Of a stretch of 64,000 nt of DNA, positions 12,774 to 46,212 are shown piece after piece (positions within the stretch are counted from its first letter, which is position 1; each line of letters begins with the position of its first letter). This DNA is from Bacillota bacterium. Lineage in GTDB: Bacteria > Bacillota_I > Bacilli_A > RF39 > UBA660. The DNA lies in contig DOEC01000006.1 in NCBI GenBank assembly GCA_003524085.1, forward strand, positions 1,146 through 65,145, in the 5' to 3' direction. The notes under the pieces are model-generated. The model saw only the letters and a program-made list of their open reading frames with translations, was not told the DNA's origin and did no database searches. Position numbers and translations under genes: made by a program.

Positions 12774-12785
12774 AAATTTTCCCTC

Positions 12786-23842: not shown

Positions 23843-25248
23843 TCTATATATTTTCCATTTAAGCTAAAACTATGAGCTTCAGTAATTATAACATCTACTA
23901 TTTGTCCGATTAAATCTTTATCACTTTCAATATTAACTAGCTTCATATTTTCAGTATATCCCATGTATTTTTTAGGATCTTTTTCGCTTGGAGAAACAAC
24001 TAGGCATTTAACAACTTTATCTACCATTTTTAAGTTACTCTCTAGGCTATATTTATTTACTAGTTCATTTAATTTGTATAGTCTACTTTCTTTTTCTTCT
24101 TTTGGAGTATCATCAGGTAGTTTCATAGCTGGTGTACCCACTCTTGGACTAAATATAAATGTGAAAGCTCCATCAAATTTGCAAGTGTTTACTACGTCAA
24201 GTGTCTCATTAAAATCACTTTCTGTTTCGCCTGGAAATCCAACTATTATATCAGTTGTTATACTTACACCTTTTACTTTAGTTCTTATTTTGTTATATAA
24301 AGTAAGATACTCTTCTTTTGTATACTTTCTTCCCATAAGTTTTAATATTCTATCGCTTCCACTTTGAATTGGTAAGTGCACGTATGGCATAACGTTATCA
24401 TATTTACTTATCACATCTATCATTTCATCAGTAAAGTCCCAAGGATGTGACGTAACAAACCTAATTCTCTCAATATTAGTTTTTGCTACATCTATAAGCA
24501 AGTTTGCTAAAGTATAGTCTTCATACAAGTCTTTTCCATAAGCGTTTACGTTTTGTCCAAGAAGAGTTACTTCTTTGTAGCCTTCACTTTTAAGTTTTTT
24601 TATTTCTTTAATGATGCTTTCCTTTTTTCTACTTCTTTGAGTACCTCTAGTGTAAGGGACTATACAGTATGTACAGAATTTATCACAACCTAATTGTATA
24701 TCTACCCATGCAGAATACTTGCTTTCTCTTTTTTCAGGTATTCCCTCACATATATTACCTTCTATACTATATACTTCTACGTTTTGTTTACCAGTTTTTA
24801 TAGAGTTATTTATTACATTAACCATATTATCTAAGTTGTGTGTTCCAAATACAAAGTCTACATATTTATATTTAGACATAATTTCATTTACTACACTTTC
24901 TTCTTGAGCCATACATCCACATATTCCAAGTAGTATATCATGATTTTCTTTTAATTTTTTAACTAGACCTAGAAAACCAAAGACTTTGTCATGGGCATTT
25001 TCTCTAATAGCACAGGTGTTTAAAATAACTATGCTTGCTTCTTCAATATTGTCAGTTTCAACCATTCCATTTTGTGATAATACTCCTTTTACTCTTTCTC
25101 CATCGTGGACGTTCATTTGACATCCATAAGTTCTTACATAGTATTTTTTCCCTATTAAACTTTCATCTAAACTTACATCTTTATATTCATAATTTATTGG
25201 TTTACTATTGTTTCTTTTTTTTGCTTCTAACATATTAGGTACTTGCAT
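23836..25248 (-). CDS. miaB: tRNA-2-methylthio-N6-dimethylallyladenosine synthase MiaB
   Basis: Track ORF 23836..25266, with the start moved to MQVPNM after a GAAAGGAAG RBS. It has the UPF0004 N-domain (YYVRTYGCQMN), radical SAM CDKFCTYC and a TRAM C-terminus. Confidence 0.9.
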   Translation of the reverse strand: MQVPNMLEAKKRNNSKPINYEYKDVSLDESLIGKKYYVRTYGCQMNVHDGERVKGVLSQNGMVETDNIEEASIVILNTCAIRENAHDKVFGFLGLVKKLKENHDILLGICGCMAQEESVVNEIMSKYKYVDFVFGTHNLDNMVNVINNSIKTGKQNVEVYSIEGNICEGIPEKRESKYSAWVDIQLGCDKFCTYCIVPYTRGTQRSRKKESIIKEIKKLKSEGYKEVTLLGQNVNAYGKDLYEDYTLANLLIDVAKTNIERIRFVTSHPWDFTDEMIDVISKYDNVMPYVHLPIQSGSDRILKLMGRKYTKEEYLTLYNKIRTKVKGVSITTDIIVGFPGETESDFNETLDVVNTCKFDGAFTFIFSPRVGTPAMKLPDDTPKEEKESRLYKLNELVNKYSLESNLKMVDKVVKCLVVSPSEKDPKKYMGYTENMKLVNIESDKDLIGQIVDVIITEAHSFSLNGKYIES

Positions 25249-25275
25249 AAATTCACTTCCTTTCAAGTAGTTACA

Positions 25276-25304
25276 AATATATCACTAAATGTGGTTATTG
25301 TCAA
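25276..25304 (-). promoter_or_regulatory. miaB promoter
   Basis: On the minus strand: TTGACA (25299-25304), 17 nt, TATATT (25276-25281). Confidence 0.55.
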
Positions 25305-25469
25305 TTATTTTAGGTGTTTTATAAGTTACAAAATTAAGTGAATTCATTGGAAAACCTTTAACAAAACTAAAGGCAGCTAAATCTTTGATTTCTGTCAAAA
25401 AGGTGTGACAGTTTCGCACTTTTTTGAAAACATCTTATATGAGCCATTTAAATTTCCAACCACTGGTTG

Positions 25470-25997
25470 GAATTTTTTTGAAATTTGTTAGATGGTATTA
25501 TTATAGTACTAGGTACCATTTCTTTTGCTTGAGTTTCTGTTTTTTTCTTTTAATTTGATTTCTTGTTTTCAAAGATAATTTATCGTATTCATTAATTTTT
25601 ATTTTTTTCTCTAAGTGCACGCTCACTTAAATTACCTCGTTTAAGTTATATTAATGTAATACTTGATTTCTCCTAAGTTTTTTAAAGGTAAAAGTAATTT
25701 ATAATGTGACCAAGTCAATTGGTCATCCAATGGATGACCTTTTTCAATAAAATTATGGAATAATCTCATGTATTTAAGATTTGTAATCCCGTAATTTGTA
25801 CCAAATTCTTTTGTTAATTCTTTTGCATACTTTTTAACTATACCTTCGCCGTAGTGTTTACCAGCTTCTGCTAATTCCTTTCCAATATTATAATTCATTG
25901 TTAGTTTTACATTGTTTATCTGATAATTCTTAACTATTAATTTAGCATTACCATTTATTATTTCACTCCTTATATTCTCTAAATAATTTTCTTCCAT
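25470..25997 (-). pseudogene. Fourth DUF1016 paralog, truncated and disrupted (no nuclease domain)
   Basis: Track ORF 25641..25997 (MEENYLENIRSEIINGNAKL...YYINIT) stops at ~118 aa. Homology continues out of frame (KINEYDKLSLKTRNQI...VPSTIIIPSNKF) to ~25475 and ends at a hairpin, TTCCAACC-ACT-GGTTGGAA. Confidence 0.7.
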
Positions 25998-26226
25998 GAT
26001 TACATCCTTTCACCATTACAATTGCGTCTGTTTTAAATCTAGTGACAAAAATATTTTGTTTTAATATTCACGTATGTTTTCAAAATTAGTTTTCTCATAT
26101 TTTAAATATGAAATATAAACTTAGATAAATTCTTAATAAGAAATCTACTAGTTATCTTAAAAAATAATCTCATAATTTACTCTCCTTTCTAGGAAAGGCT
26201 TTTTAACCCTCCTAATATATTTATTC

Positions 26227-26269
26227 GACAAAAAACGTGAAAAGCCTTTTTTTATTTTAACTTTACGCG
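26227..26269 (-). promoter_or_regulatory. Second copy of the DUF1016 leader hairpin plus U-tract
   Basis: On the minus strand: CGCGTAAAGTT, loop, GGCTTTTCACG, TTTTTTG. It lies within an ~95-nt block (26208-26303) that is about 85-90 percent identical by eye to 13703-13800. Confidence 0.5.
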
Positions 26270-26323
26270 AAATTTAACGTGAAATTTTACACAAAAATGT
26301 AAAATTTACTAGTGTTTTTATCA

Positions 26324-26342
26324 TTGTCACTTAGTTGTCACT
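26324..26342 (+). promoter_or_regulatory. Two TTGTCACT direct repeats with 11-bp phasing upstream of the dlt-like operon promoter
   Basis: TTGTCACT occurs at 26324-26331 and 26335-26342, about 30 nt upstream of the -35 box. Confidence 0.4.
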
Positions 26343-26371
26343 TTATATGTGATAAAATGACATAAATTTAG

Positions 26372-26400
26372 TTGATAAGTAAATTGATTTTTGCTATAAT
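26372..26400 (+). promoter_or_regulatory. Promoter of the dlt-like operon
   Basis: TTGATA (26372-26377), 17 nt, TATAAT (26395-26400). An AAGGAAG RBS precedes ATG 26430. Confidence 0.6.
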
Positions 26401-26429
26401 ATTGATGTTTAAAAAAGGAAGTAAGAAGT

Positions 26430-27926
26430 ATGAAACAAGTATTAGAATATTTAGAAAAAAATGACAAAAATAAAACAGCAGTTATATGTGAAAATGAATC
26501 TATTACATATGAAGAGTTAATTAGTAAATCCAAACTAGTTGGGTCTAACCTTATAAATAAAGTTAAAATTAATGAACCAGTAATAGTTTTTATGGATAAA
26601 GGTATAACTACACTAGAAGTATTTTTTGGTATTTTATATAGTGGTGGGTGTTATAGTTTAGTAAATCCAGAGTTTCCTCAAAATAGAATTAAATCTATTT
26701 TAAATACTCTTGAAGCAAAATGCGTTATTACAAATATAGAAAACTATGAAAAAGCTAAAGAAGTTTTTAATGGAATAAATATAATTAAGTGTGAAGATTT
26801 AGTTAGTGGTAGTATTTTAGAAAGTGAATTAGAAAACATTAGAAGATCTAAACTAGACATAGACCCAGTATATATTAATTTTACAAGTGGTAGTACTGGG
26901 GTACCAAAAGGTGTTGTAGTAAGTAATAGAAGTATAATTGATTTTATTGATGTATTTACTAACCTATTTGATATTAAAGAAAGTGACATAATTGCAAACC
27001 AAGCACCATTTGATTTTGATGTTTCAGTAAAAGACATCTATAGCGCACTTTGTAAAGGTTCTACTTTGTTAATAGTACCAAAGAAATTATTTAGTAGTCC
27101 TGCTAATTTGCTTGATTACTTAGTTATAAACAACGCTACTACACTTATCTGGGCAGTCAGTGCATTATGTTTAATTACTACATTCCACGGCCTAGACTAC
27201 AAAGTTCCAACAAGTGTTAACAAAATAATCTATAGTGGTGAAGTAATGCCTCTTAAACACTTGAAAATATGGATGGATAAATTACCTAATGTAAGAGTAA
27301 TTAACGTATATGGTCCAACTGAAATAACTTGTAATTGTACATATCATGAAGTTGACAGAAGTAGAACTTATGTAGAAAATATTCCTATTGGTAAAAGTTT
27401 TCCTAATGAAAAAGTTTTCTTACTTGATGAAGAAAACAAACTAGTTAATACTCCTAATATTTCTGGAGAAATATGTGTAAGTGGAACTTGTCTTAGTTTA
27501 GGATACTATAATAATAAAGAAGTTACAGATAAAGTATTTATGCAAAACCCACTAAACAATAAATACATTGAACCTATTTATAAAACTGGAGACCTAGCAA
27601 TGTATGATGAAAATATGGACTTGTTTTTTAAAGGAAGAAAAGACTTTCAAATTAAATATATGGGCCACAGAATAGAGCTTGAAGAAATAGACACAGAAGT
27701 ACTTAAGTTAGATGGTGTTAAAAGATGTCTCACATTATTTGATGAAAAGAAAAGTAAACTTTGGTGTTTCTATGTAGGAGAAGTTACTAAAGAGGATATT
27801 ATATCTTTCTTAAAAGTAAATGTTCCAGAATACATGGTGCCTACTAAGTATGTTAAGTTAGAAGAGTTTACTCTTACTAAAAATGGTAAAATAGATAGAA
27901 ATGTATTAAAGGAGATGATTAAATGA
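26430..27926 (+). CDS. DltA-like carrier-protein ligase (stand-alone adenylation enzyme)
   Basis: 498 aa. Motifs are FTSGSTGVPKGV, NQAPFDFDVSV, YGPTE, YKTGD, GRKDFQIKYMGHRIELEEI and NGKIDR. It is collinear with DltA but has YSGEVMP where B. subtilis DltA has FCGEVLP. Confidence 0.85.
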   Translation: MKQVLEYLEKNDKNKTAVICENESITYEELISKSKLVGSNLINKVKINEPVIVFMDKGITTLEVFFGILYSGGCYSLVNPEFPQNRIKSILNTLEAKCVITNIENYEKAKEVFNGINIIKCEDLVSGSILESELENIRRSKLDIDPVYINFTSGSTGVPKGVVVSNRSIIDFIDVFTNLFDIKESDIIANQAPFDFDVSVKDIYSALCKGSTLLIVPKKLFSSPANLLDYLVINNATTLIWAVSALCLITTFHGLDYKVPTSVNKIIYSGEVMPLKHLKIWMDKLPNVRVINVYGPTEITCNCTYHEVDRSRTYVENIPIGKSFPNEKVFLLDEENKLVNTPNISGEICVSGTCLSLGYYNNKEVTDKVFMQNPLNNKYIEPIYKTGDLAMYDENMDLFFKGRKDFQIKYMGHRIELEEIDTEVLKLDGVKRCLTLFDEKKSKLWCFYVGEVTKEDIISFLKVNVPEYMVPTKYVKLEEFTLTKNGKIDRNVLKEMIK

Positions 27927-29083
27927 ACTATGAAAATATTTTAAGTAAGTACTCTACTCCACTTTTTATCTATGACTGTGATAAGTTAGAACAAAGAGTT
28001 AATTACTTAAAAAATATGTTAGATACTGATTTATGTTATGCAATTAAAGCTAACTCATTTGTTATAAAAGAAATTGAACCATTAGTATCAAGAATTGAAA
28101 TATGTTCTTATGGAGAATACATGATATGTAAAGATAATGGTGTTAAAAATGATAAGATGGTATTAAGTGGGGTTAATAAAAACTATGATGAGTTTGAAAA
28201 AATTATAAAAGAAGAAAATAATATATTAAGATACACCATTGAAAGTATTACTCAGTTTAATATGTTAAAAGAGTTATCTAGTAAATATAAGAAGAATATT
28301 AATATACTACCTAGAATTACAAGTGGTAACCAGTTTGGAATTACAAAAGAAGAACTATATTATATAATAGAGAACTTAACAGAATTTATGACTTTAACAG
28401 GTATAGAATTCTTTAGTGGAACACAAAAACACAGTATTAAGAGAATTGTTAATGAGTTTACTCTAGTTAATGAGATATTTGATTATATAGAAAACACTTA
28501 TAAACTAACTGATTTAGAGTTAGAGTATGGTCCTGGGTTACCTGTTTACTATTTTGAAGAAGAGAGTTTTAATGAAGAAGAATTTTTAAATGAAGTTAAA
28601 AACAATATTCATACATTCTTTAAAGGTAGAAAAGTTATTCTTGAAATTGGAAGAAGTTTAGTAGCAAATTGTGGTGAATATATTACTAAAGTTGTTGATT
28701 TAAAAGAAAATAAGACTGGAAAATACGCTATTATTGATGGTGGAATTAATCATTTAGTATATTATGGTGGCACGATGGGAATGATGAGACCAAAGTTTGA
28801 AATACTAAACAAAAGTAATACCAAAGAAAATATATACAACATATTTGGGTCTCTTTGCACTATTAACGATATAATTGTTAAGAATGTAAGCTTGCCTGAG
28901 TTAGAAATAAATGATACATTTGTGTTTAAGAATACTGGAGCTTATTCAGTAACTGAAGGAATTAACCTATTTTTAAGTAGAGATATGCCTAAAGTGTTAC
29001 TGCTAAAAAATAAGAATGTGTTATTAGTAAGGGACAACATTAACACATATAAGCTAAATAGTCCTAATTATGGAGGTAAATAA
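27923..29083 (+). CDS. Type III PLP-dependent decarboxylase (Orn/DAP/Arg decarboxylase family)
   Basis: 386 aa. YAIKANS (PLP Lys), EIGRSLVA (EPGR-like), IDGGINH, GSLCTINDI and NTGAYSV. It overlaps the ligase gene by 4 nt. Confidence 0.8.
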   Translation: MNYENILSKYSTPLFIYDCDKLEQRVNYLKNMLDTDLCYAIKANSFVIKEIEPLVSRIEICSYGEYMICKDNGVKNDKMVLSGVNKNYDEFEKIIKEENNILRYTIESITQFNMLKELSSKYKKNINILPRITSGNQFGITKEELYYIIENLTEFMTLTGIEFFSGTQKHSIKRIVNEFTLVNEIFDYIENTYKLTDLELEYGPGLPVYYFEEESFNEEEFLNEVKNNIHTFFKGRKVILEIGRSLVANCGEYITKVVDLKENKTGKYAIIDGGINHLVYYGGTMGMMRPKFEILNKSNTKENIYNIFGSLCTINDIIVKNVSLPELEINDTFVFKNTGAYSVTEGINLFLSRDMPKVLLLKNKNVLLVRDNINTYKLNSPNYGGK

Positions 29084-29084
29084 A

Positions 29085-29315
29085 ATGGAAAAATTATTAG
29101 AAATATTAGAGGAAATCAAGCCTGGTGTAGACTATGAAAATATTGATACTTTAATTAATGACCACTACTTAGATTCACTTTCTATACTTTCTTTAATAAG
29201 TGAACTAGAAGATGAATTTGATATTGTTATACCAACAGTTGAAATAATACCAGATAACTTTAATTCAGTTAAAAGTATGATGGCTCTAATTAACAAATTA
29301 AAAGAGGAAGATTAA
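29085..29315 (+). CDS. DltC-like acyl/aminoacyl carrier protein
   Basis: Track ORF 29070..29315, with the start moved to MEKLLEIL after a GGAGG RBS. The phosphopantetheine Ser context is YLDSLSILSLISELEDEF. Confidence 0.85.
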   Translation: MEKLLEILEEIKPGVDYENIDTLINDHYLDSLSILSLISELEDEFDIVIPTVEIIPDNFNSVKSMMALINKLKEED

Positions 29316-29317
29316 TT

Positions 29318-30883
29318 ATGCAATATAGTGAGTTATCTTACTTTCTTTTTTTACCTTTAGTAATGTTACTTTACACTTTTACTCCTAAGAAATTTAGATA
29401 CATTACTTTACTAGTAGCAAGTTTATTCTTCTTTTATACATTAAGTGGAAAATTATTAATTTATGTCGTATATAGTACTCTTATAATGTACTTTGCTTCT
29501 TTATTAATTGACCACTTTAATGAGTTAGAAGATAATATAAACGAAGAAATGCCTAAAGAAGAAAAGAAAGCTTTAAAATTAAAATATAACAAATATAAAA
29601 AAATAACTTTAGTAATTAGTATACTCTTGCTTTTGTCTACACTACTACTAACTAAATATTTGAACTTCTTTATTACAGTAATAAATGATGTATTTAAAAG
29701 TGGTTTATCTTTAACACGTATTCTAGCGCCTATTGGAATTAGTTTTTATACTTTTGAAGTATTGTCTTATTTAATAGATATATATCATAAAAAATATAAA
29801 GCTAATAAAAATATTTTGAAATGTGCCTTGTATATAGTGTTCTTCCCAACTTTAATGGAAGGACCAATTGCAAGGTATGAACAAATTAAAGATAGTTTAT
29901 TTAGTGGAGAAACAATTAATTATACTAATATGTGTTTTGCTCTTCAAAGAATAGTATATGGTCTTGGTAAAAAGCTTATTATTGCAGACAGATTAAATCC
30001 TATAGTAAAAATGATATTTAATAATTATAGTAACTATAATGGTGGAGTTGTTTTATTAGGTGGAATACTTTATACCATTCAGTTATATATGGACTTTTCT
30101 GGAATTATGGACATTGTAATTGGTAGTGGGCAGATATTTAATATTAAATTACCTGAAAACTTTAAACAACCATTTTTTTCTAAAAATATAAGTGATTTTT
30201 GGTCTAGGTGGCATATCACTCTTGGAACGTTTTTTAAAGACTATATCTTCTACCCTATTTCATTATCTAGAATTTCTAGAAATATTACTAAAATCCTAAG
30301 AAAAAAACTTGGTAGTCATTTTGGACCTTTAGTAAGTGGTTCAATTGCTTTATTAGCAGTTTGGCTAAGTAATGGTTTATGGCATGGAGCAGGATACCAA
30401 TACATCTTATTTGGAATGTATCACTTTGTACTAATCTTACTTGGTAATATATGTATGCCATTAATTAATAGATTTTATGATAAGACAAAAATAAATAAAG
30501 AAAGTGTTTTTGTTAAGTGTTTTAGCATTTTAAGAACTACTATATTAGTAATATTTGGAGAAATAATATTTAGATCAAACTCTGTAAAAGATGCATTATC
30601 TATGATTAAAAGAATATTTACTAACTTTAGTTTTGATATAGTTAAACCTTTAAATAAGATAGGACTAGACATATACGATATGATTATTATTTTAGTTACT
30701 CTTATTGTTATAGTGGTTATTAGTATTTTAAAAGAAAAGAATATTAACGTTAGAGAAATTATTAGTAAAAAGCCTATCTATATTAGATGGATAATCTATT
30801 ATGCTCTTATATTATATGTTTTAATCTTTGGTGCTTATTTGGGTCCATATATTCCGGTTGACCCAATGTATGCTAATTTTTAG
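29318..30883 (+). CDS. MBOAT family O-acyltransferase (DltB/AlgI-like)
   Basis: 521 aa and polytopic. It has FWSRWHITLGTFFKDYIFYP and the conserved His in GLWHGAGY. Confidence 0.85.
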   Translation: MQYSELSYFLFLPLVMLLYTFTPKKFRYITLLVASLFFFYTLSGKLLIYVVYSTLIMYFASLLIDHFNELEDNINEEMPKEEKKALKLKYNKYKKITLVISILLLLSTLLLTKYLNFFITVINDVFKSGLSLTRILAPIGISFYTFEVLSYLIDIYHKKYKANKNILKCALYIVFFPTLMEGPIARYEQIKDSLFSGETINYTNMCFALQRIVYGLGKKLIIADRLNPIVKMIFNNYSNYNGGVVLLGGILYTIQLYMDFSGIMDIVIGSGQIFNIKLPENFKQPFFSKNISDFWSRWHITLGTFFKDYIFYPISLSRISRNITKILRKKLGSHFGPLVSGSIALLAVWLSNGLWHGAGYQYILFGMYHFVLILLGNICMPLINRFYDKTKINKESVFVKCFSILRTTILVIFGEIIFRSNSVKDALSMIKRIFTNFSFDIVKPLNKIGLDIYDMIIILVTLIVIVVISILKEKNINVREIISKKPIYIRWIIYYALILYVLIFGAYLGPYIPVDPMYANF

Positions 30884-30894
30884 GAGGTAATGTT

Positions 30895-31818
30895 ATGAAA
30901 AATATATTAAAATCCACATTATTTTTAAGTATACTTTTAGTTATCATTATATATATGGGAAAAATCTTTACTCCTAAAGATAACACTTTAGAAAGTGGGA
31001 TGAATGAAGTAAGAGCTAATGGAATACTTGGAGAAAAAGATGATATTGATGTTATTATAATTGGAGACTCTTTAACATACAGTTCATTTATACCAATTGA
31101 GATGTATAAAGAATACGGGTTTACTTCATATGTAATGGGTACTCATGCACAAAGAAGTCATGATACTTATAAGTTACTTAAGAATGCTCTTAATTATCAA
31201 AAACCTAAAGTTGTAGTACTTGAAACTAATCTTTTATTTAGAAAATATAGTTTTAATAGAGATATGCTTAGTAAGCTTGAAACAATACTACCTTTCTTTG
31301 ATTATCATAATAGATGGAAAAATCTAAGTTTTAAAGATTTTACTAGTGAAATTAATTATACTTACACTGACCCGACTAAAGGATATATGTTAAAGAAAAG
31401 TGTTAAAAGTGGAAAGACTTATAATTATATGAAAAAAGATAGTAAAGTTACTCATATAGTTAATAGAAATTATGTTTATTTAGAGAAAATAAAAAAGTTA
31501 TGCAGTGAAAATAATATCAAGCTAATTTTGGTAAGCGCATCAAGTGAAAGGAATTATAACTTTAGTAAACATGAAAGTATTGAAAAATATGCAACCAAGA
31601 ATAAAATAGACTATATTGATTTAAACTTAGAAGATGTTAAAATTGACTGGGAAAAAGATACTACTGATAAAGGAGATCATTTGAATTATTTGGGAGCTTT
31701 AAAAGAAAGCAAGTTTTTTGGTAATATTTTAAAAGATAGGTATAATCTGGTAGATAAAAGAGGTACACTAGAAAGTTGGGATAAACTAGAAATGGTGTAC
31801 AATAAAAAAGCTAGATAG
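30895..31818 (+). CDS. Membrane-anchored SGNH/GDSL-like protein (DltD/AlgX-position analog)
   Basis: 307 aa with an N-terminal TM. Block I is VIIIGDSLTYSSF, and the C-terminal region has DKGDHLNYLG. Confidence 0.6.
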   Translation: MKNILKSTLFLSILLVIIIYMGKIFTPKDNTLESGMNEVRANGILGEKDDIDVIIIGDSLTYSSFIPIEMYKEYGFTSYVMGTHAQRSHDTYKLLKNALNYQKPKVVVLETNLLFRKYSFNRDMLSKLETILPFFDYHNRWKNLSFKDFTSEINYTYTDPTKGYMLKKSVKSGKTYNYMKKDSKVTHIVNRNYVYLEKIKKLCSENNIKLILVSASSERNYNFSKHESIEKYATKNKIDYIDLNLEDVKIDWEKDTTDKGDHLNYLGALKESKFFGNILKDRYNLVDKRGTLESWDKLEMVYNKKAR

Positions 31819-32170
31819 TATAACATACTACACTAGCTACTGCATAAACTTCATCATGCGTAATTGAAAGGCTAAATTTTAGTCTTTCTTTTTTTATGTA
31901 TTCACTTAGTTTTCCATAGAAATTAAAGTAAGGCATGCCATTATTATGTAACACTTCTATATCAAGGATACTATATACGCTTAAATTTACTCCTAAGCTT
32001 TTTAAAAGAGCTTCTTTGGCAGCGAATACTCCCGCCTTTGTTTCTATGCTTTTATGACTAGCAAAATACTCTAATTCACTACTTGTAAACACACTACTTA
32101 ATTTTTTTATTTTGTTTATACTTTCAACCCTGACTATATCTATTCCATTAGTTATCATTTTTTTCCTCAA
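31811..32170 (-). CDS. acpS: Holo-[acyl-carrier-protein] synthase
   Basis: 119-aa track ORF. The likely start is MITNGIDIVRVESI at 32158. FTSSELEY and FAAKEALLKSLG motifs are present. Confidence 0.85.
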   Translation of the reverse strand: MRKKMITNGIDIVRVESINKIKKLSSVFTSSELEYFASHKSIETKAGVFAAKEALLKSLGVNLSVYSILDIEVLHNNGMPYFNFYGKLSEYIKKERLKFSLSITHDEVYAVASVVCYTI

Positions 32171-34127
32171 GAGTACTTTCTTTTTGCGCTACTTTTTTAA
32201 AGTAGTCTGTTTTTAATGTTAAATCATTCTTCTTTATTAATTCACTTATATAGTGGTTCATGTTTTCTAAGTCAGTTATATTTATCCATTTACCATTAGT
32301 TACTTCTCCACCCTCAACATAAACTTTTCCGTTATACCAAGAGTAATCACTAAAGAATACGTATCCATTATAATTTTTAGATAGAGCATTAGTACCTATA
32401 TAATTATTAGAATTATAGTCTATCCCATATAAATTAAGTATTGTTGGAAGTATATTTAACTGACTTGTTACATCAGTAACTGTCTTTTTACTCTTACCAT
32501 CATATATAAAGAATGGTGTATGATTTATCAAGTTATTTGATGTTTCCTTGTATTTATCTAGTATAGTTTGGTCACTTAATGTATATAAGTAATGATCAGT
32601 AAATACGACTATTGCTGTGTTAGACATAAGATTTTTTTCTTCAAGTTTATTTAGAAGAAGTTCTACCATATAGTCTGTTTCTTTTGCTTGTCTTAAAGCA
32701 CATTCTTCTTCTGTTAATGTAGGTAATTTATAGTCTTTTGGAAGTTTGTCAACATTCAAGTTTTCTAAAGCATCTAATTCTACTAATCTTTTACATACAC
32801 CTTTTTCAGTACTAAATGGTAAGTGACTACTATAAGTAATGATATAGTCTACAAATTTTTTTTCACTAAACATTCTATTACTAAAGTCCTCATTTAAAAT
32901 TAGTTCTCTATCTAACTCATATTCTTTATTTTTATACTCATACATATCAACTAGACCATAATAGTTATCATATCCCCAGTTTTTATAGTTAACTCCCCTA
33001 CTATAGAATTCGCTTGTATTCATGTGAAATGCATTAACCGAATAGCCTAAGTTCTTAAATAGTTTTGACAAAGTATAAGGAAATGTGTTTTTACTAAATG
33101 AATAAGCGTTTTGTGTATAACTTAGTGGTGTTATAAAACCAGTATTAACAGCAAATTCACTATTAAAAGTACTTCCTCCACCATTATAATATGAGTAATG
33201 ATTTTTAAAGTTTATTCCTTTATTCATTAGTTTATATAAAGTTGGAGTGTTTTCTTTAGTTAACATCCACGAGTCTACACCTTCTAATTGAAGTATTATT
33301 AAGTTTTTGTCTTTTAATAAACCAGTGTACCTATCTGTAGTTTTTTCATCTTCCATGTTATAAATACCATCTAAAAATGACATTTCTTCTTCGCTAGTTG
33401 TTTTTTTAGGTTTTAAGAATGTTACATAAAAATTTCTTACATTGTATTCATAAAATCCACTTATTCTCATACTTTTATTGTTATCATTAAAGCTTATGTA
33501 AATGTTTCTAGGATTACGCCAGGTTGACCAAGTAAGTTCTTTGTCAGATTTTCCGTACACTAGTGGTGTAAGAGTGTGTCCTACTAAGAAGATTACTAAA
33601 ATTACTGCTAGTTTTTTATATCTATTTTTTTCTACTTTTGGATAAAATTTAAATAAGTATATAGTTAAAGATAATATTAAAAGCATAAGTATGTAAACCC
33701 ATATGTTACAGTTAATAATCGCATCCATGAAGTAGCCTGAGCCTTCTCCTGCAAGTAATACTAGAGAAAAATCAAAGAATGTATCTGTCATACTATAGTA
33801 GACATTGTTTACTGTAAACAAGGCAAAACTAAGGATAAAAAATACTACGTATATAGATTTACCTATTTTTCCCTTAAATGAAGTACTAAGTCCAATTATT
33901 AGAGTTACCCATAATAAAGTAAATAAATTTGGGGCTAATCTATATATGCCATAAAAGTTTATTTTATATCCTAAAATTCTTGTAAACAAGTCCATCAATA
34001 TAAATGGAATACTTATTAATATTATACTTTTATTTCTTATAAAAAAGGCGATTATCTTTTTAAATATGTTATCTTTTTCTTTTATATTTTTCTTTTTTTC
34101 TTTCACATCTTTTTTCATTTTAATCAC
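32148..34127 (-). CDS. ltaS: Lipoteichoic acid synthase family protein (LtaS-type sulfatase-fold)
   Basis: 659 aa with five N-terminal TM segments. The extracellular sulfatase domain shows ILQLEGVDSW and GGGSTFNSEFAVNTG. Confidence 0.85.
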   Translation of the reverse strand: MIKMKKDVKEKKKNIKEKDNIFKKIIAFFIRNKSIILISIPFILMDLFTRILGYKINFYGIYRLAPNLFTLLWVTLIIGLSTSFKGKIGKSIYVVFFILSFALFTVNNVYYSMTDTFFDFSLVLLAGEGSGYFMDAIINCNIWVYILMLLILSLTIYLFKFYPKVEKNRYKKLAVILVIFLVGHTLTPLVYGKSDKELTWSTWRNPRNIYISFNDNNKSMRISGFYEYNVRNFYVTFLKPKKTTSEEEMSFLDGIYNMEDEKTTDRYTGLLKDKNLIILQLEGVDSWMLTKENTPTLYKLMNKGINFKNHYSYYNGGGSTFNSEFAVNTGFITPLSYTQNAYSFSKNTFPYTLSKLFKNLGYSVNAFHMNTSEFYSRGVNYKNWGYDNYYGLVDMYEYKNKEYELDRELILNEDFSNRMFSEKKFVDYIITYSSHLPFSTEKGVCKRLVELDALENLNVDKLPKDYKLPTLTEEECALRQAKETDYMVELLLNKLEEKNLMSNTAIVVFTDHYLYTLSDQTILDKYKETSNNLINHTPFFIYDGKSKKTVTDVTSQLNILPTILNLYGIDYNSNNYIGTNALSKNYNGYVFFSDYSWYNGKVYVEGGEVTNGKWINITDLENMNHYISELIKKNDLTLKTDYFKKVAQKESTLEEKNDN

Positions 34128-34252
34128 GTATATATTGTACCAAATATCTTACTGTTTGTCTAGATGGTCTTAACATATTTAAATATAACTAGTATTATTT
34201 TTTTCTAAATAAAAAGAAAAAACTTTAGTTAATTTTTATTTACTTTTAATAA

Positions 34253-34570
34253 TTATTTGACTAACTTTATATCAATTATATCTTTAATGTCTATTACTTC
34301 GTTGTTTATTGTTAATAATTTAGTTTTATCCCTAGCTATTAAAGTGCAAGATTTGTCTCCATTTTTTGTGGTTACACACACATTTACTTTATATATAAAG
34401 TTGTTACTTGAAAATATATCGTTAATCTTTTTTCTTATTAGTATTTCTTTCATGTTATCATCTATTATTTTTGTTTCATTTAAATTATCTTTTCCATAGT
34501 AAAATTCTTCATTGTTTTTTATTATTCCAGTATTTTTATTTACAAATATATTAGGTAGTTTTTTATTCAT
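34253..34570 (-). CDS. Hypothetical protein (105 aa)
   Basis: ORF track only. A GGGGGAAAC RBS lies upstream. Confidence 0.45.
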   Translation of the reverse strand: MNKKLPNIFVNKNTGIIKNNEEFYYGKDNLNETKIIDDNMKEILIRKKINDIFSSNNFIYKVNVCVTTKNGDKSCTLIARDKTKLLTINNEVIDIKDIIDIKLVK

Positions 34571-34627
34571 AGTTTCCCCCTAGTAAAGTGTATGATTATT
34601 TTTTTATTTAATTCCATAATTTAGCAG

Positions 34628-34657
34628 TTGACTATACAAACAAAGACGTGTTATACT
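34628..34657 (+). promoter_or_regulatory. Promoter of the Y-family polymerase operon with an embedded ACAAAC-N4-ACGTGT element
   Basis: TTGACT (34628-34633), 18 nt, TATACT (34652-34657). ACAAACAAAGACGTGT lies at 34636-34651 in the spacer. Confidence 0.5.
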
Positions 34658-34684
34658 TAATGCGAACAAAGGATGGTGTTTGTC

Positions 34685-35929
34685 ATGGAAGAAAGAAATA
34701 TTTTATGTATTGATTTAAAGAGTTTTTTTGCTTCAGTTGAATGTATTGAAAGAAATTTAGACCCGTTTACTACTCCCTTAATTGTTGCTGATCCATCTAG
34801 AAAAGGTGGGGCGATTACTCTTGCAGTTACTCCATATATGAAAACTCTTGGTGTACCTTCTCGTGGAAGAGTTTTTGAGATACCTAAAGGAATTAAATAT
34901 ATTACAGCTACTCCTAGAATGAGTTTGTATGTTAAGAAAAGTAAAGAAGTTATTAATTGTTTTTTAGATTTTGTAAGTAAAGAAGATATGCATGTGTACT
35001 CTATAGACGAAGCGTTTTTAGATGTTACTGATTATTTAAAGTTATATAAGATGGATGATGTTACTTTAGCTAAAAACATAATGGCTAGAATTAAAGAGAA
35101 GACAGGACTTACTAGTACGTGTGGAATTGGGCCCAACTTACTTCTTGCTAAGGTTGCACTTGATATTGAGAGTAAACATAGTCCTGACTTTATCGCTAAG
35201 TGGACTTATGAAGATGTGAAGACTAAGTTATGGAATATAACACCATTAGACGAGATGTGGGGAATTGGATCTAAAACTATGAAAAAACTAAATGATCTAG
35301 GAATATATAAGGTTGGAGATATTAATAAGTATGGTAAAGAGTTTTATAAGAAAAGATTTGGTGTGTTAGGCGAAGAGTTGTATTTGCACGCGAATGGGAT
35401 AGATTATAGTAATATTAAAAATGATAGATATGAAGTTAAAAATAAAAGTTATGGACTTAGTCAGATATTATATAAAGATTATACTCCTAGTGAAGTTATT
35501 TTAATTGTTAAAGAGATGTGTGAGACCGCTACTAAAAGACTTAGAAGTAATAAAAAAGCATGCGAAGTAGTTGGTTTTGGTATTGGATACTCTAGAAGTG
35601 TTGGTGGTGGGTTTTATCATTCTAAGAAGTTATCTTCTCCTACTGATAAAGATAGCGTTATTTATGAAGTGTGCAAAAGTATACTTGATGCGTATATTGA
35701 AGAACTTCCTATTAGAAAGGTAAGTATTTCTCTTGGTAAATTAAGTGATAATAATTATGTACAGTTAAATTTATTTGATACAAACGAAGAAAGTTATGAT
35801 GAGACTATGAAAACAATTGACGAGATAACTAAGAGATTTGGGGATAATGCTATTTTAAAAGCGTCTAGTTTACTTGATTATAGTACAATTAAAATGCGTA
35901 ATAAGAAGATGGGTGGACATAATAAGTAA
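34685..35929 (+). CDS. Y-family DNA polymerase (DinB/UvrX/YqjW-like translesion polymerase)
   Basis: Track ORF 34673..35929. ILCIDLKSFFASVEC, YSIDEAFLDVT and the HhH WGIGSKTMKKL are present. Confidence 0.9.
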   Translation: MEERNILCIDLKSFFASVECIERNLDPFTTPLIVADPSRKGGAITLAVTPYMKTLGVPSRGRVFEIPKGIKYITATPRMSLYVKKSKEVINCFLDFVSKEDMHVYSIDEAFLDVTDYLKLYKMDDVTLAKNIMARIKEKTGLTSTCGIGPNLLLAKVALDIESKHSPDFIAKWTYEDVKTKLWNITPLDEMWGIGSKTMKKLNDLGIYKVGDINKYGKEFYKKRFGVLGEELYLHANGIDYSNIKNDRYEVKNKSYGLSQILYKDYTPSEVILIVKEMCETATKRLRSNKKACEVVGFGIGYSRSVGGGFYHSKKLSSPTDKDSVIYEVCKSILDAYIEELPIRKVSISLGKLSDNNYVQLNLFDTNEESYDETMKTIDEITKRFGDNAILKASSLLDYSTIKMRNKKMGGHNK

Positions 35930-35939: not shown

Positions 35940-36245
35940 ATGTATAGAAAAATGATTAAATGGAAACCATTTAATACCTTACTTAAGTATAAAGATATTT
36001 TAGAAATTGATAAAAATAGACAGTTAGTTGATAAGCCTGTTATTATGGAAGACAGGATATATGAAATTAATGATGTGTTAAAGAGTGTGAATTCTTCTAC
36101 TTTAGTTAGAGTAAAATATTTTAATAAAGGAATGCTATTATATAAAGAAGGATATGTTAGTAAAATTGATACAATAGAAAAATATATTCTAATAGATAGA
36201 TTTAGAATATATTTTAGGGAACTTATTAAAATTGAAGTTATTTAG
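35940..36245 (+). CDS. YolD-like protein (UmuD-position partner of the Y-family polymerase)
   Basis: Track ORF 35874..36245, with the start moved to MYRKMIKWKPFNTL. ~100 aa, located immediately downstream of the polymerase as in uvrX-yolD and yqjW-yqjX pairs. Confidence 0.6.
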   Translation: MYRKMIKWKPFNTLLKYKDILEIDKNRQLVDKPVIMEDRIYEINDVLKSVNSSTLVRVKYFNKGMLLYKEGYVSKIDTIEKYILIDRFRIYFRELIKIEVI

Positions 36246-36759
36246 TTAATGAATGTACGACCATGTTGTCTTGATATTCTACTAAGTCTGGATATATTTT
36301 AAATAGAGTGTCTAAATCTTTCTTCTCTACTACTCTGTGTCCTAGAGTGTTAAAGTGAGTGGGATTTCCCATTACTGCTAGTGAAGTATCTATTACTACT
36401 TTCTTGTTATTAAGTACTGTTTCTACTACCCAGTGGCCGCCGAAAGAGCTACCCTCCGTACCTTTGAAGTGTGGGTTTACTACGTACACGGCTTCACTAT
36501 ATATTCCAAGTTTATCTAGTAAAAGAACAAGTTCATATGAACAGGTTTTGCATCTTCCACCAGTTAAGCCTAGTCTAAAAAGGTCAATAAATGCAAGAGG
36601 GCCATACCCAGTTATTCTAATTGGTGTTTTGTCTTTTGAAATTATATCCCATAAAAGCTCGTCAAACTCAGTTAGTTTGTTTTTACTATAAAGTTCATTA
36701 AATACTTTTTTAAATTCTTTATTGTTTCTTAATAACTCTTCTCTAAATACATTTTTCAT
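36238..36759 (-). CDS. Hypothetical protein, possibly transglutaminase-like Cys-His-Asp fold
   Basis: 173 aa. Candidate triad contexts are GGRCKTCS, GGHWVVE and VVIDTS. The assignment is weak. Confidence 0.35.
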   Translation of the reverse strand: MKNVFREELLRNNKEFKKVFNELYSKNKLTEFDELLWDIISKDKTPIRITGYGPLAFIDLFRLGLTGGRCKTCSYELVLLLDKLGIYSEAVYVVNPHFKGTEGSSFGGHWVVETVLNNKKVVIDTSLAVMGNPTHFNTLGHRVVEKKDLDTLFKIYPDLVEYQDNMVVHSLTK

Positions 36760-37156: not shown

Positions 37157-37220
37157 AAATTTGTGCTTTTATTTTTTAGGGTTAATTGATATAATTATAA
37201 TAGGTAAAGGTAGGGATTAT

Positions 37221-39230
37221 ATGGACAACGTTTTAAGTGAACTAGTGAAAAAACTAGAAAAAGGAGAAAGTGTAAGTAATTTAGTCAGTGAATTTAAAAT
37301 CAGTGAGTTTGAGCTTTTTGGTTATGTAAGAAAGTTAAAGGAAACTGGTATTAATGTTATTAGGACTGAAAAGAATAATGAAGTTAGACTAATAATTAAT
37401 CACCATCCTGATTATACAAAAGAAAATGTATATAATATTAATGTGGACGTAAACTTGAATACTAAGTTTGCTGTTATAAGTGATACTAGATTTGGTTCAA
37501 CAAACGAGCAAATTGCTATTTTAAATGACTTATATAAAAAGTTTTTAGAGTGTGGTGTTACATATGTAATTGTAGCAGGAAATTTACTTGAAGGCGAATA
37601 TAAAAACAACGATGTTTATGAATATGGTAAAAGTTTAATTAGTAATACTAGTATTGGGCAAGCTAATCATTTATTAGAGTTTTATCCTAAGGTAACTGGT
37701 ATTACTACTCTTTTTATTACAGGAAAAACTGACCATACTTGGAGTAAAGAGTTAAATGTTGGAGAATATATTAGTAGTAACAGAGATGATTTAATTTATT
37801 TAGGGCCTAAAAGTGCAACTATTAATTTTAATAAAGTTATGTTTAGGGTTGAGAATTTGAAAAAGCAAGGAGAAAGCTATACTATCGCATATCCACCACA
37901 GAAGTATTCTAGAAGTATGCCTAGTTATGAAGATTATGACGCGATATTTTTAGGTGGCACATTGACTGCACAGGAGTTTCCCACAATTAGAGATACTAAG
38001 ATGTTTGCAATACCTTCTGTAGTTGCTAGAACTCCAAAGATGAGAAATTTAAGTCAACAAAATACTATAGGTGCGTATGTTTTTGATATTAGTTATACTA
38101 AAAATGGAAAATTAAAGAGTATGAAGTCTACACTTATTCCCTACTACGTTCCTAGTAAAGAAAACTATATTACAATAAAGCCTCTTATAATAAGTGATAG
38201 TAAAGATAATGTTAAAGTTAAGCCTGTTAAAGATAATATGACTAGTATGTTAGATAGAATATATAGAAATATTAAGAAGGAAGAGAGTTTTAGTGATTTG
38301 ATGAATAGACTTTCAATTAATGAAAATGAACTTTATGGCGTGATTGACCTACTTCAAGAAAGAGGAAGAGATATTGGTATTAGTGAAATTGATGGGGTTC
38401 TTGTCGTTAGAAAAAATGTTAAAAAAATTAGAAAGACTGAGATAAAGCTACCTAAAGAAGAATTACATAAAAAGGTGTTTCTAGTTGTAAGTGATACGCA
38501 TTACGGAAGTATTTATAGTCAGCCTTCTATGGTAAATACATCTGTTTATGAAGCTTATAACCGTGGAATTACTGATATATTTCATGTTGGAGATATTACT
38601 GATGGAGATTATAGTAGAATTAGGCCAATACATAATTATGAAGTGTTTTTATATGGTGCGACTGGACAGCTTGAGTACACCTTAAATACTTTGCCTAAGT
38701 TTCCTGGAATGAAGTGGCACATTATTACTGGAAGTCATGATCAAACTCACCTATTTAATTATGGAGTCGATATTGGAAAAGAATTAGAAAAAAGAAGAGA
38801 CGATATTGAGTTTCTTGGGCAAGACAGAGGCTTTTATTATTTTGACAACTGCAAGATGGAGCTATTTCATCCAGGTGGTGGGACAAGCAGAATACTTTCT
38901 ACAAAGCCACAGAACGGAATTGATCAGATACCAAGTCATACTAAACCTAAAATCAGTTTAAGAGGACATTACCACAAGTCTTATTATATGTTTTATAGAA
39001 ATGTTCACACTTTCTTGTGTCCATGTAATGTTGATACATCTTCATTTATGATGAAAAATGAGATACCTAATTTGATGGGAAATTATTTCATTACTATTTG
39101 GTATGACGATAATGGAGATATTGAATATTTAGAAACTGAACCTATGATTTTTACTAATGAAGATGTGACTTACAGAGATTTTGAAAATCCTAAAAAGTTT
39201 ATAAAAAGCAAAATTAATAAAAAAATTTAA
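37221..39230 (+). CDS. Tandem-duplicated wHTH-metallophosphoesterase protein (degenerate first unit, intact second unit)
   Basis: Track ORF 37161..39230, with the start moved to MDNVLSEL (RBS AAAGGTAGGG). Unit 2 has DTHYGS, VGDITDGD, GSHDQ, FHPGGG and RGHYH. Unit 1 has DTRFGS, AGNLLEGE and TGKTDH at the aligned positions. Confidence 0.7.
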   Translation: MDNVLSELVKKLEKGESVSNLVSEFKISEFELFGYVRKLKETGINVIRTEKNNEVRLIINHHPDYTKENVYNINVDVNLNTKFAVISDTRFGSTNEQIAILNDLYKKFLECGVTYVIVAGNLLEGEYKNNDVYEYGKSLISNTSIGQANHLLEFYPKVTGITTLFITGKTDHTWSKELNVGEYISSNRDDLIYLGPKSATINFNKVMFRVENLKKQGESYTIAYPPQKYSRSMPSYEDYDAIFLGGTLTAQEFPTIRDTKMFAIPSVVARTPKMRNLSQQNTIGAYVFDISYTKNGKLKSMKSTLIPYYVPSKENYITIKPLIISDSKDNVKVKPVKDNMTSMLDRIYRNIKKEESFSDLMNRLSINENELYGVIDLLQERGRDIGISEIDGVLVVRKNVKKIRKTEIKLPKEELHKKVFLVVSDTHYGSIYSQPSMVNTSVYEAYNRGITDIFHVGDITDGDYSRIRPIHNYEVFLYGATGQLEYTLNTLPKFPGMKWHIITGSHDQTHLFNYGVDIGKELEKRRDDIEFLGQDRGFYYFDNCKMELFHPGGGTSRILSTKPQNGIDQIPSHTKPKISLRGHYHKSYYMFYRNVHTFLCPCNVDTSSFMMKNEIPNLMGNYFITIWYDDNGDIEYLETEPMIFTNEDVTYRDFENPKKFIKSKINKKI

Positions 39231-46207: not shown

Positions 46208-46212
46208 ATAAA

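Follow-up and report, generated by a model that had tools for sequence, protein, structure and literature searches.

The main finding of this analysis is a cassette of five tightly coupled genes that combines a carrier-loading ligase, a PLP decarboxylase, a carrier protein, an MBOAT and a membrane-anchored SGNH protein. It lies in a stretch of 64,000 nucleotides from a Bacillota bacterium (contig DOEC01000006.1), which is referred to below as the window. The evidence tips, by no wide margin, towards a self-contained envelope amino-acylation module, in which a Dlt-type carrier-fed front end is joined to a PatA/PatB-type MBOAT-SGNH back end and supplemented by a decarboxylation step that is absent from both.

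Organization and conservation of the cassette

The features of the cassette and of its borders are the following:

26430-31818, + strand: whole cassette, five tightly coupled genes (ligase, PLP decarboxylase, carrier, MBOAT, SGNH protein)
26372..26400, + strand: promoter-like site, TTGATA and TG-TATAAT with a 17-nt spacing; the ligase ATG follows about 30 nt downstream
26430..27926, + strand: gene 1, adenylating ligase for amino acids, stand-alone and of ANL/A-domain type, 498 aa; AMP-binding 201 bits
27923..29083, + strand: gene 2, PLP decarboxylase with an alanine-racemase fold, from the DAPDC/BtrK clade, 386 aa; K42 as PLP lysine and Cys312 of catalytic type
29070..29315, + strand: gene 3, stand-alone carrier protein of aminoacyl/peptidyl type, 81 aa; Ser36 of the motif D35-S36-L37 is the phosphopantetheine site
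29318..30883, + strand: gene 4, MBOAT, 521 aa; DltB-like core at residues ~2-419 (His299, His356) plus a C-terminal extension; Pfam MBOAT
30863..30880, + strand: end of the MBOAT coding sequence, hexapeptide PMYANF with Tyr518, fitting the FXYXXF acyl-shuttle motif
30895..31818, + strand: gene 5, protein of SGNH/GDSL fold, 307 aa, membrane-anchored, with a TM helix at the N-terminus; G57-D58-S59 and G260-x-H262 invariant
31866..31888, + strand: terminator-like hairpin and T-run, 48 nt past the gene 5 stop, within the convergent acpS ORF
31811..32170, - strand: AcpS-type 4'-phosphopantetheinyl transferase, 119 aa, convergent, with an 8-nt overlap with the cassette
32148..34127, - strand: membrane protein of the sulfatase family with LtaS architecture, 659 aa; listed for context and not conserved with the cassette

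All five genes are translationally coupled, and the frame of the decarboxylase gene, which is placed between the ligase and carrier genes, overlaps both of them. At least 325 species genomes carry the cassette, the majority of them from uncultured Bacilli, Lachnospiraceae and Oscillospiraceae of gut and rumen, and the 80 loci with the most similar decarboxylase were inspected. An identical five-gene order was present in every locus long enough to show it (74/74), with median intergenic gaps along the cassette of -4, 4, 1 and 8 nt, and the decarboxylase occupied the same slot in all of these complete loci, across distant hosts. The operon structure is borne out by gene calls made independently on other contigs, and the co-conservation of the five genes spans hosts of 25-47% GC. 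Clustered at 50% identity, the SGNH component alone gives 468 clusters (E<=1e-30). Gene content, operon structure and strict co-conservation are shown by these data.

An earlier note, made from the sequence alone, had described a dlt-like operon of five genes with an embedded decarboxylase, and this description was confirmed at 26430-31818 (+). The co-transcription and co-conservation that its reading requires are supported by the translational coupling and by the range of hosts. The promoter-like site has 11 of 12 matches and an extended -10, and had the top + strand score in a scan of 25200-35000; it is a consensus match only, and such sites are no commoner in the region than in shuffled sequence. 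The terminator-like hairpin is likewise only a consensus match.

The same note had linked the operon to the convergent acpS and ltaS genes. In 43 of the 80 loci acpS occupies this place and has this orientation, and its product matches ACPS with 42.5 bits and TIGR00556 with 59 bits, above the cut-off. It is inferred that AcpS is the likely source of the holo-carrier; the function of Dlt in L. plantarum requires AcpS (PMC9338922). The ltaS link failed as a conserved feature, the ltaS-like neighbour being adjacent in only 3 of the 80 loci; its product contains a Sulfatase domain (101 bits) and reaches 95 bits with the LtaS equivalog, against a cut-off of 970.

Ligase and carrier protein

The ligase matched the AA-adenyl-dom profile with 311 bits and remained below the cut-offs of the DltA equivalog TIGR01734 (286 vs 560) and of NF003417 (300 vs 476). 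Its identity is 27-34% to four solved DltAs, which share 41-56% among themselves, and 29-30% to module 2 of LgrA. Alignment to DltA and GrsA identified the specificity positions as D197, V198, K201, I267, S269, V292, C301, N302 and K487, giving a pocket D-V-K-I-S-V-C-N-K, compared to D-L-M-(F/M/L)-C-T-V-A-K in DltA; the alignment left position 278 ambiguous. The pocket is unlike that of DltA at six of the eight compared positions (236, 239, 301, 322, 330 and 331), and D197, V198, K201, S269, C301 and N302 are identical in >=97% of 80 ligase sequences. The scores under the equivalog cut-offs, the low identity and the divergent pocket rule out a DltA orthologue. The earlier observation that the ligase differs from DltA at a Cys therefore held, and five further pocket positions differ too.

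Position 239 contacts the distal group of the substrate side chain; a Glu there belongs to the Orn/Lys/Arg codes and a Gln to the Glu/Gln code (PMC12283262), and for this reason Lys201, which occupies that position, fits a carboxylate. An acid substrate is an inference resting mainly on this one pocket residue, with no biochemical evidence.

The carrier gave 24 bits with PP-binding, over its cut-off, and its DSL motif is invariant among orthologues. It scored 28 bits vs a cut-off of 68 and 16 vs 52 with the DltC equivalogs, and its best PDB matches were peptidyl carrier proteins (33 bits), DltC reaching 25 bits.

The decarboxylase

The best solved match to the profile of the decarboxylase family was BtrK (144 bits), with an identity of ~24%, while 175 bits were obtained with the lysA model TIGR01048 vs a cut-off of 298, and the Pfam match to Ala_racemase_N was weak (23 bits). 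Three motifs, LCT, DGGxxH...GxxM and GTQ, are common to the family and BtrK, their DAPDC counterparts being (I/V)CE, DAGMNDLIRP and GSQ; the substrate motifs of the DAPDCs, (I/V)CE, NDLIRPxxY and HxGSQ, are replaced by LCT, NHLVYYGxTM and FSGTQ. The score, the missing DAPDC motifs and the cassette-locked position of the gene exclude LysA. The precedent of BtrK, which the earlier note had invoked for decarboxylation of a carrier-tethered amino acid, held in that BtrK, and not LysA, is the nearest solved match. Action on a tethered amino acid is itself inferred, and has the indirect support of the BtrK-like motifs and of Lys201 in the ligase.

Thiotemplated decarboxylation is established for BtrK, CtaF and VinO, which act on Glu-, Asp- or 3-methyl-Asp-S-carrier in their pathways. 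It remains possible that the decarboxylase of the cassette acts first on a free amino acid, converting Asp to beta-Ala or Glu to GABA, and that the ligase loads the product for export. Against this, the invariant Lys201 beside the amino-binding Asp197 suggests that the substrate of the ligase retains a second carboxylate; the decarboxylase gene lies between, and overlaps, the ligase and carrier genes; three of the three characterized pairs of a decarboxylase and a stand-alone carrier act on the tethered substrate, CtaF rejecting free Asp; and the three family motifs are common to BtrK and not to the DAPDCs.

A further alternative is that the PLP enzyme epimerizes the tethered amino acid from L to D without decarboxylation, producing a D-aminoacyl donor like D-Ala. 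The alanine-racemase fold with the weak Ala_racemase_N match speaks for it, as do the absence of an alpha-carboxylate to lose in a thioester-linked alpha-amino acid and the compatibility of K201 with alpha-activated Glu. This reading is considered very improbable, and on-carrier decarboxylation is preferred.

The MBOAT and its SGNH partner

With the DltB model the MBOAT gave 154 bits vs a cut-off of 375, covering residues 2-419, and its PDB matches were DltB structures only (74 bits, with WHG aligned). His356 of WHG and His299 of RWH are invariant among orthologues and align to DltB. The C-terminal extension contains two hydrophobic segments, 445-478 and 486-514, and a PxYxxF C-terminus occurs in 74 of 75 MBOAT orthologues, the P, Y, A and F being invariant. 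The FXYXXF motif and its role as a shuttle have been described for DltX and PatA, NgPatA ending in FIYANF (PMC12148441); position 1 of the hexapeptide in the cassette is Pro and not Phe. No DltX-like micro-ORF was found adjoining the cassette. The intact catalytic residues and the fused shuttle motif are shown, and the assignment as a DltB/AlgI-type MBOAT is corrected to a PatA/AlgI-like one in mechanistic terms, in that the protein carries a fused tyrosine shuttle and DltX is absent.

The AlphaFold model of gene 5 (pLDDT 95.7) showed an SGNH fold preceded by a TM helix at the N-terminus; placement outside the cytoplasm is inferred from this topology. PatB, OatA-C and DltD are among its structural neighbours, and the closest are generic GDSL esterases, DltD being no nearer. 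Neither domain search nor structural comparison places gene 5 in the DltD family. Thus, for the SGNH protein that had been noted in the DltD position, the fold held and the family assignment failed.

Instead of acting on a wall polymer, the cassette might make or modify a secreted small molecule, a surface protein, or the head group of a membrane lipid or glycolipid, and the MBOAT/SGNH pair would then have another role than acylating teichoic acid or peptidoglycan. In favour of this, no polymer-synthesis or glycosyltransferase gene was co-conserved with the cassette in the analysis of the conserved flanks of related loci, for which reason the acceptor polymer remains unidentified; the ltaS-like neighbour is rare, and generic GDSL esterases are nearest to gene 5. 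Pairs like DltA/DltC can also feed lipid modification, as in AlmEFG of Vibrio. On the other side, the descriptions to date of a fused FXYXXF shuttle with a membrane-anchored, extracytoplasmic SGNH partner concern the acylation of envelope polymers (PMC12148441), and PatB, OatA-C and DltD count among the structural neighbours of gene 5. Moreover, no condensation, thioesterase or PKS gene was found in the cassette by domain search and flank analysis, and a class B PBP with a PASTA domain is encoded in the window, so that the host has a wall. A non-wall target is accordingly held to be unlikely.

An ordinary D-alanylation (dlt) operon with an inserted housekeeping lysA is all but excluded. The top NCBIfam names, DltA, lysA, DltB and, weakly, DltC, would favour it. 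The scores, however, are far under the curated cut-offs (286/560, 175/298, 154/375 and 28/68), six residues of the invariant DltA pocket, Cys included, are replaced in the ligase, the DAPDC motifs are absent from a decarboxylase that keeps its slot in all complete loci, DltX is lacking and gene 5 is not DltD.

Proposed pathway and its significance

In the envelope amino-acylation module that is preferred here, the neighbouring AcpS would convert the 81-aa carrier into its holo form. The ligase would then adenylate an amino acid with a second carboxylate and thioesterify it to the carrier, the candidates being Asp via the beta-carboxyl, Glu via the gamma-carboxyl, or meso-diaminopimelate; such a substrate is inferred from the invariant Asp197/Lys201 pocket and the divergence from DltA. 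The BtrK-like PLP decarboxylase would strip the free alpha-carboxylate from the tethered residue to give, by analogy with BtrK, CtaF and VinO, a beta-alanyl-, gamma-aminobutyryl- or lysyl-S-carrier. At the cytoplasmic face the MBOAT is predicted to take the acyl group off the carrier and, via His356, to pass it to Tyr518 of its own PMYANF at the outer face, a step inferred from the conserved residues and the published PatA/DltX mechanism. From there the acyl group would move onto Ser59 of the SGNH protein, and finally to an ester on an envelope polymer. That loading precedes decarboxylation is an inference, as are the identity of the substrate and that of the acceptor, and biochemical evidence is lacking.

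The different ligase and the built-in BtrK-like decarboxylase suggest that the envelope probably receives an as yet unidentified amino-acyl group. It is tempting to go further and to see here a widespread, undescribed envelope pathway of gut Firmicutes, in which on-carrier decarboxylation of a dicarboxylic amino acid makes the donor, an omega-amino-acyl or lysyl group rather than D-alanine is placed onto a wall or membrane polymer, and an MBOAT with its own tyrosine shuttle is, for the first time, fed by a carrier; this bolder reading may as easily prove wrong as right. The interpretation put forward in the earlier note is supported, every part of it that could be tested computationally having held, and its suggestion of an undescribed variant stands so far, since no published description of the cassette was found in the literature searched.

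D-alanylation by Dlt is the model for the tuning of surface charge in Gram-positive bacteria, for resistance to cationic antimicrobial peptides and for host signalling. The cassette would be a second, chemically distinct, carrier-fed amino-acylation route, and through it thiotemplated PLP decarboxylation, so far known in antibiotic pathways, would enter cell-envelope biology. It runs counter to the current generalization that MBOAT/SGNH pathways with a fused shuttle have no carrier protein, and raises the question of whether an aminoacyl-S-carrier donor is acceptable to an MBOAT with a fused tyrosine shuttle. If the bolder reading is true, the surface chemistry would be new, and the cassette would connect the Dlt type of MBOAT-SGNH system with the PatA/AlgI type in evolution. 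Synthetic genes would suffice to reconstitute the front half, consisting of ligase, carrier and decarboxylase, with no need to culture a host.

Comparison with known systems

With DltABCD/DltX the cassette shares a stand-alone adenylating ligase that loads a small carrier, a single tight operon, a DltB-like MBOAT core with conserved His (DltB being the only solved relative), a membrane-anchored extracytoplasmic SGNH-fold partner and, by inference, dependence on an AcpS-type PPTase. It differs in that the ligase is not a DltA orthologue, a PLP decarboxylase is encoded between ligase and carrier, the shuttle motif is on the MBOAT itself and not on a separate DltX microprotein, and the SGNH protein stands outside the DltD family.

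The exosortase A (PEP-CTERM/EpsH1) ligase and decarboxylase, a functionally uncharacterized system, are also an AMP-forming ligase/DAPDC-like pair linked to surface-polymer loci by genome context. These are Gram-negative exopolysaccharide loci, unlike the cassette, whose proteins match TIGR03098 and TIGR03099 at 170 and 159 bits, far under the cut-offs of 592 and 478, and no exosortase/PEP-CTERM neighbours appeared in the conserved flank analysis of its loci.

The resemblance to BtrI/BtrJ/BtrK (butirosin), CtaD/CtaE/CtaF (closthioamide) and VinN/VinL/VinO with FlvN (macrolactams) is that genes for a loading enzyme, a stand-alone carrier and a PLP decarboxylase lie together; like the ligase of the cassette, VinN and FlvN work by adenylation, whereas BtrJ and CtaD are ATP-grasp enzymes. 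Those systems feed cytoplasmic antibiotic assembly (NRPS, PKS, transacylases), while the cassette leads to an MBOAT-SGNH pair for export and transfer.

As in PatA/PatB, the MBOAT has an invariant catalytic His and a C-terminal hexapeptide carried on two extra hydrophobic segments, together with a separate SGNH partner containing catalytic-type Ser and His. PatA/PatB-type systems, which O-acetylate peptidoglycan, alginate and other polymers, use acetyl-CoA as donor and have neither carrier protein nor ligase (PMC12148441), whereas the cassette encodes ligase, carrier and decarboxylase, and its donor is therefore presumably an aminoacyl-S-carrier.

Organization of the cassette

The region 26430-31818 of the window contains five closely packed genes on the forward strand, facing two genes on the reverse strand.

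Genes and signals of the cassette region (window positions, strand, feature)
26372-26400, +, sigma-70-like promoter site, strong (11/12, extended -10); consensus match only
26430-27926, +, ligase, ORF of 498 aa; AMP-binding (Pfam/NCBIfam)
27923-29083, +, decarboxylase, ORF of 386 aa; Orn/DAP/Arg decarboxylase (Pfam/NCBIfam)
29070-29315, +, carrier, ORF of 81 aa; PP-binding (Pfam/NCBIfam)
29318-30883, +, MBOAT, ORF of 521 aa; MBOAT (Pfam/NCBIfam)
30895-31818, +, gene 5, ORF of 307 aa
31866-31888, +, terminator-like hairpin; consensus match only
31811-32170, -, acpS, convergent; 8-nt overlap with the end of gene 5
32148-34127, -, gene of LtaS architecture, preceding acpS; N-terminal membrane region and sulfatase domain

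The five ORFs were found at the positions reported in an earlier note, made without database searches, and all the motifs quoted there are present. Neighbouring genes overlap by 4 nt and 14 nt at the first two junctions and are separated by 2 nt and 11 nt at the last two. Gene 5, which encodes a membrane-anchored SGNH-fold protein in the DltD position, matched no family model in the Pfam and NCBIfam searches. No second ligase or MBOAT gene is present in the 64-kb window.

The terminator-like hairpin sits within the acpS coding sequence (window 31811-31888) and, given also the 8-nt overlap of gene 5 with acpS, transcription of the cassette and of acpS may interfere. The LtaS-architecture gene shares 23 nt at its stop with the start of acpS. 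Against the curated LtaS model (cut-off 970) its product reached just 95 bits, and its real activity is uncertain.

Other features of the window were recorded. Three tandem full-length YhcG/DUF1016 PDDEXK-nuclease paralogues (10944-13694, -; 302 aa each, 78-82% identical) are accompanied by a fourth, truncated copy (25641-25997, -; N-terminal 118 aa only, 67-75% identical), which directly precedes the promoter region of the cassette. Twelve tRNA genes within about 1.1 kb (46134-47224, -) account for a local GC peak (0.40), and one isolated tRNA is found at 39311-39384 (+). The ORFs 37161-39230 (+, 689 aa), 56180-57715 (-, 511 aa) and 36238-36759 (-, 173 aa) gave no Pfam match at E<=1e-4.

Conservation across genomes

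When one genome per GTDB species was scanned with a pattern, 325 genomes were found to encode a relative of the decarboxylase. The flanks were analyzed for the best 80 of these by decarboxylase similarity, the remaining 245 being outside all counts. By tblastn and ORF-level blastp the order ligase-decarboxylase-carrier-MBOAT-gene 5 was found in 74 of the 80 loci, the other six being truncated at contig ends; the median intergenic gaps were -4, 4, 1 and 8 nt, and independent gene calls on further contigs gave a matching arrangement. The earlier note would have been refuted by genes that are not co-transcribed or not co-conserved, and within this sample that was not the case.

The hosts are mainly uncultured gut and rumen Bacilli and "Tenericutes" MAGs (human, rabbit, mouse, ruminants), together with Lachnospiraceae, Oscillospiraceae and further Clostridia, and the GC content of the loci ranges from 25% to 47%. 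No cultured host was identified, every named record being a MAG or a metagenome contig. Five loci (L011, L032, L038, L057, L063) lie on MAG contigs labelled 'uncultured Muribaculaceae', with a GC of 27-32%, that bear this Firmicute-type cassette; the taxonomic assignment is probably an error of binning or of automatic naming.

The earlier note had also connected the operon with acpS and ltaS. The first association held, a convergent acpS recurring in 43 of the 80 loci; the second failed as a conserved link, an ltaS-like gene adjoining the cassette in just three loci, those of the closest relatives. In L. plantarum, Dlt function depends on AcpS, which docks on DltC (PMC9338922); this makes a role for the conserved acpS neighbour plausible. 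In 15 of the 80 loci the ligase is directly preceded by genes for an OmpR-type response regulator and a HisKA histidine kinase, recalling the two-component control of dlt operons; this pair, absent from the window, is nearly always on the ligase strand (L073:5785-7407, L080:6113-6892 and 13 other loci). Apart from acpS and the two-component system, no recurring flank neighbour was found in the 80 loci.

Specificity of the ligase and the carrier

The ligase fell far below the cut-offs of both DltA equivalogs of NCBIfam (286 against 560; 300 against 476) and narrowly missed that for amino-acid adenylation in general (311 against 317). In the PDB its best matches were NRPS adenylation domains (LgrA module 2, 204 bits), DltA giving 170-184 bits. 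Cassette ligases share 46-71% identity among themselves, 27-34% with DltA and 29-30% with LgrA module 2; the DltAs of four genera share 41-56%. The carrier, with an invariant D35-S36-L37 motif, is nearer to generic aminoacyl/peptidyl carriers than to DltC (NCBIfam and PDB comparison).

The comparison at Stachelhaus positions 235/236/239/299/301/322/330/331/517 gave D-L-M-(F/M/L)-C-T-V-A-K for the four DltAs, whose sequences were taken from PDB alignments and verified, and D197-V198-K201-I267-S269-V292-C301-N302-K487 for the window ligase. Numbering follows a GrsA reference segment; the comparison with DltA is independent of it. Position 278 is ambiguous, three alignments giving I240, W241 or A242. 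Since at least 97% of the 80 orthologues share D197, V198, K201, S269, C301 and N302, one substrate common to the family is inferred from sequence alone, and D-Ala is an unlikely candidate.

In NRPS codes the residue in contact with the distal end of the substrate side chain is that at position 239; this is Glu when Orn, Lys or Arg is bound and Gln in the code for Glu/Gln (PMC12283262). The invariant Lys at this position, one helical turn from the amino-binding Asp, would fit a substrate with a second carboxylate. A code for Glu with Lys-239 exists (DAKDLGVVDK); documented support covers only the general role of the position.

The search of annotated plasmid records yielded nothing beyond NRPS adenylation domains and a single unrelated cluster from Paenibacillus. 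The latter holds the nearest ligase relative in annotated plasmid/chromid records (36% identity; L081:7965-12304, Paenibacillus cellulosilyticus NZ_CP054613.1); unannotated, it differs from the cassette in comprising a ligase, a GNAT acetyltransferase, a 76-aa carrier, a KAS III-like enzyme and a metallo-beta-lactamase-fold protein.

The decarboxylase

On the lysA model the decarboxylase scored 175 bits (cut-off 298). As a single sequence it had a slight preference for meso-diaminopimelate decarboxylases (DAPDCs; 99 bits) over BtrK, the L-glutamyl-S-BtrI decarboxylase (86 bits). A profile built from 15 family members placed BtrK first among solved structures (144 bits), then SbnH (139), with genuine DAPDCs at 135 or less. 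At three motifs of the substrate region the family sides with BtrK over DAPDC.

Substrate-region motifs (cassette family; BtrK; DAPDC)
After the catalytic Cys: LCT; LCT; (I/V)CE
Specificity loop: DGGINH...VYYGxTM; DGGMHH...TFRGRSM; DAGMNDLIRPxxY
PLP-stacking: (Y/F)FSGTQ; VYTGTQ; CHIGSQ

The PLP lysine K42, ExGR, Cys312 and GAY are invariant. A rival reading, in which the PLP enzyme bearing these motifs would act as an epimerase, is regarded as very unlikely. That the cassette is an ordinary dlt operon with an added lysA is all but excluded, being contradicted by the curated cut-offs, the ligase pocket residues, the missing DAPDC motifs and the strict synteny.

Residues 278-286, the invariant VYYGGTMGM loop corresponding to the DAPDC specificity region, form the only segment with a model pLDDT below 50. 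On this prediction the loop could become ordered only upon binding of a partner or substrate.

For several DAPDC-clade enzymes the substrate is conjugated or tethered (BtrK, MccE, FigC, SbnH, AcsE; PMC7857480), and in the literature those paired with a stand-alone carrier act on the thioester. In butirosin biosynthesis BtrK converts Glu-S-BtrI to GABA-S-BtrI; Asp-S-CtaE is converted to beta-Ala-S-CtaE, free Asp not being a substrate (PMC7183216); and the adenylation enzyme VinN loads its carrier before 3-methyl-Asp-S-VinL is decarboxylated (PMC11284099). The alternative that the free acid is decarboxylated first and the product then loaded is a less likely possibility.

The MBOAT and its putative acyl shuttle

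DltB was the sole NCBIfam match of the MBOAT (154 bits against a cut-off of 375, residues 2-419), and DltB structures were its only solved relatives (74 bits). His299 and His356 align with the DltB RWH and WHG histidines. The protein extends about 100 residues further at the C-terminus, with hydrophobic stretches at 445-478 and 486-514 and PMYANF as its last six residues; PxYxxF is C-terminal in 74 of 75 orthologues, most commonly as PIYADF.

In the Dlt pathway the shuttle tyrosine of FXYXXF is borne by the microprotein DltX; in acyl-CoA-dependent MBOAT/SGNH pathways the MBOAT itself carries the motif at its C-terminus, on an extra pair of TM helices, as in N. gonorrhoeae PatA, ending FIYANF (PMC12148441). 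A separate DltX was rejected, no FxYxxF-ending micro-ORF being found upstream of the cassette in the window. Across all 80 loci only two FxYxxF-ending ORFs were detected, both kilobases from the cassette and probably due to chance. Because PxYxxF is fused and a DltX micro-ORF is lacking, the cassette is a hybrid of a presumed carrier-protein donor and a fused shuttle.

Among SGNH relatives, one locus (L016:13029-14900) has two tandem paralogues after the MBOAT, 43% and 49% identical to the window protein, and another protein (P0346, 924 aa) is a fusion of an SGNH relative, a DUF4300 domain and a second, partial GDSL region.

Proposed pathway

The best-supported reading, inferred from sequence alone and by analogy as regards decarboxylation on the carrier, has five steps. 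AcpS would prime the carrier; the ligase would load it with a dicarboxylic amino acid; the decarboxylase would act on the loaded carrier to strip off the alpha-carboxylate still present; the MBOAT would move the acyl group via His356 to Tyr518 on the outer face; and the SGNH protein would accept it on Ser59 and then esterify an envelope polymer. PLP chemistry can remove a carboxylate only from the carbon that bears the amine, and therefore the amino acid would be tethered through its side chain (the beta-carboxyl of Asp or the gamma-carboxyl of Glu) or, for diaminopimelate, through the far end. The resulting groups would be beta-alanyl, gamma-aminobutyryl or lysyl, without a confident ranking.

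The host is inferred to be walled, since one of the window genes is for a class B PBP with a PASTA domain; the acceptor could be a teichoic acid, peptidoglycan or another glycopolymer. Across the 80 loci the cassette has no co-conserved glycosyltransferase or polymer-synthesis gene, which leaves no clue to the acceptor; a non-polymer acceptor or product is held to be unlikely.

Comparison with known systems

No description of the cassette was found in the full-text literature searched, and a prior mention is not excluded. Of the candidate substrates, Asp has the nearest precedent with an adenylation-type loader, in VinN and FlvN, the latter loading Asp itself (PMC11284099). The hybrid of carrier donor and fused shuttle is absent from the description in PMC12148441. 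Every module is of a known kind, and it is the combination of a carrier-fed pathway, a decarboxylase and a fused shuttle that is likely to be new.
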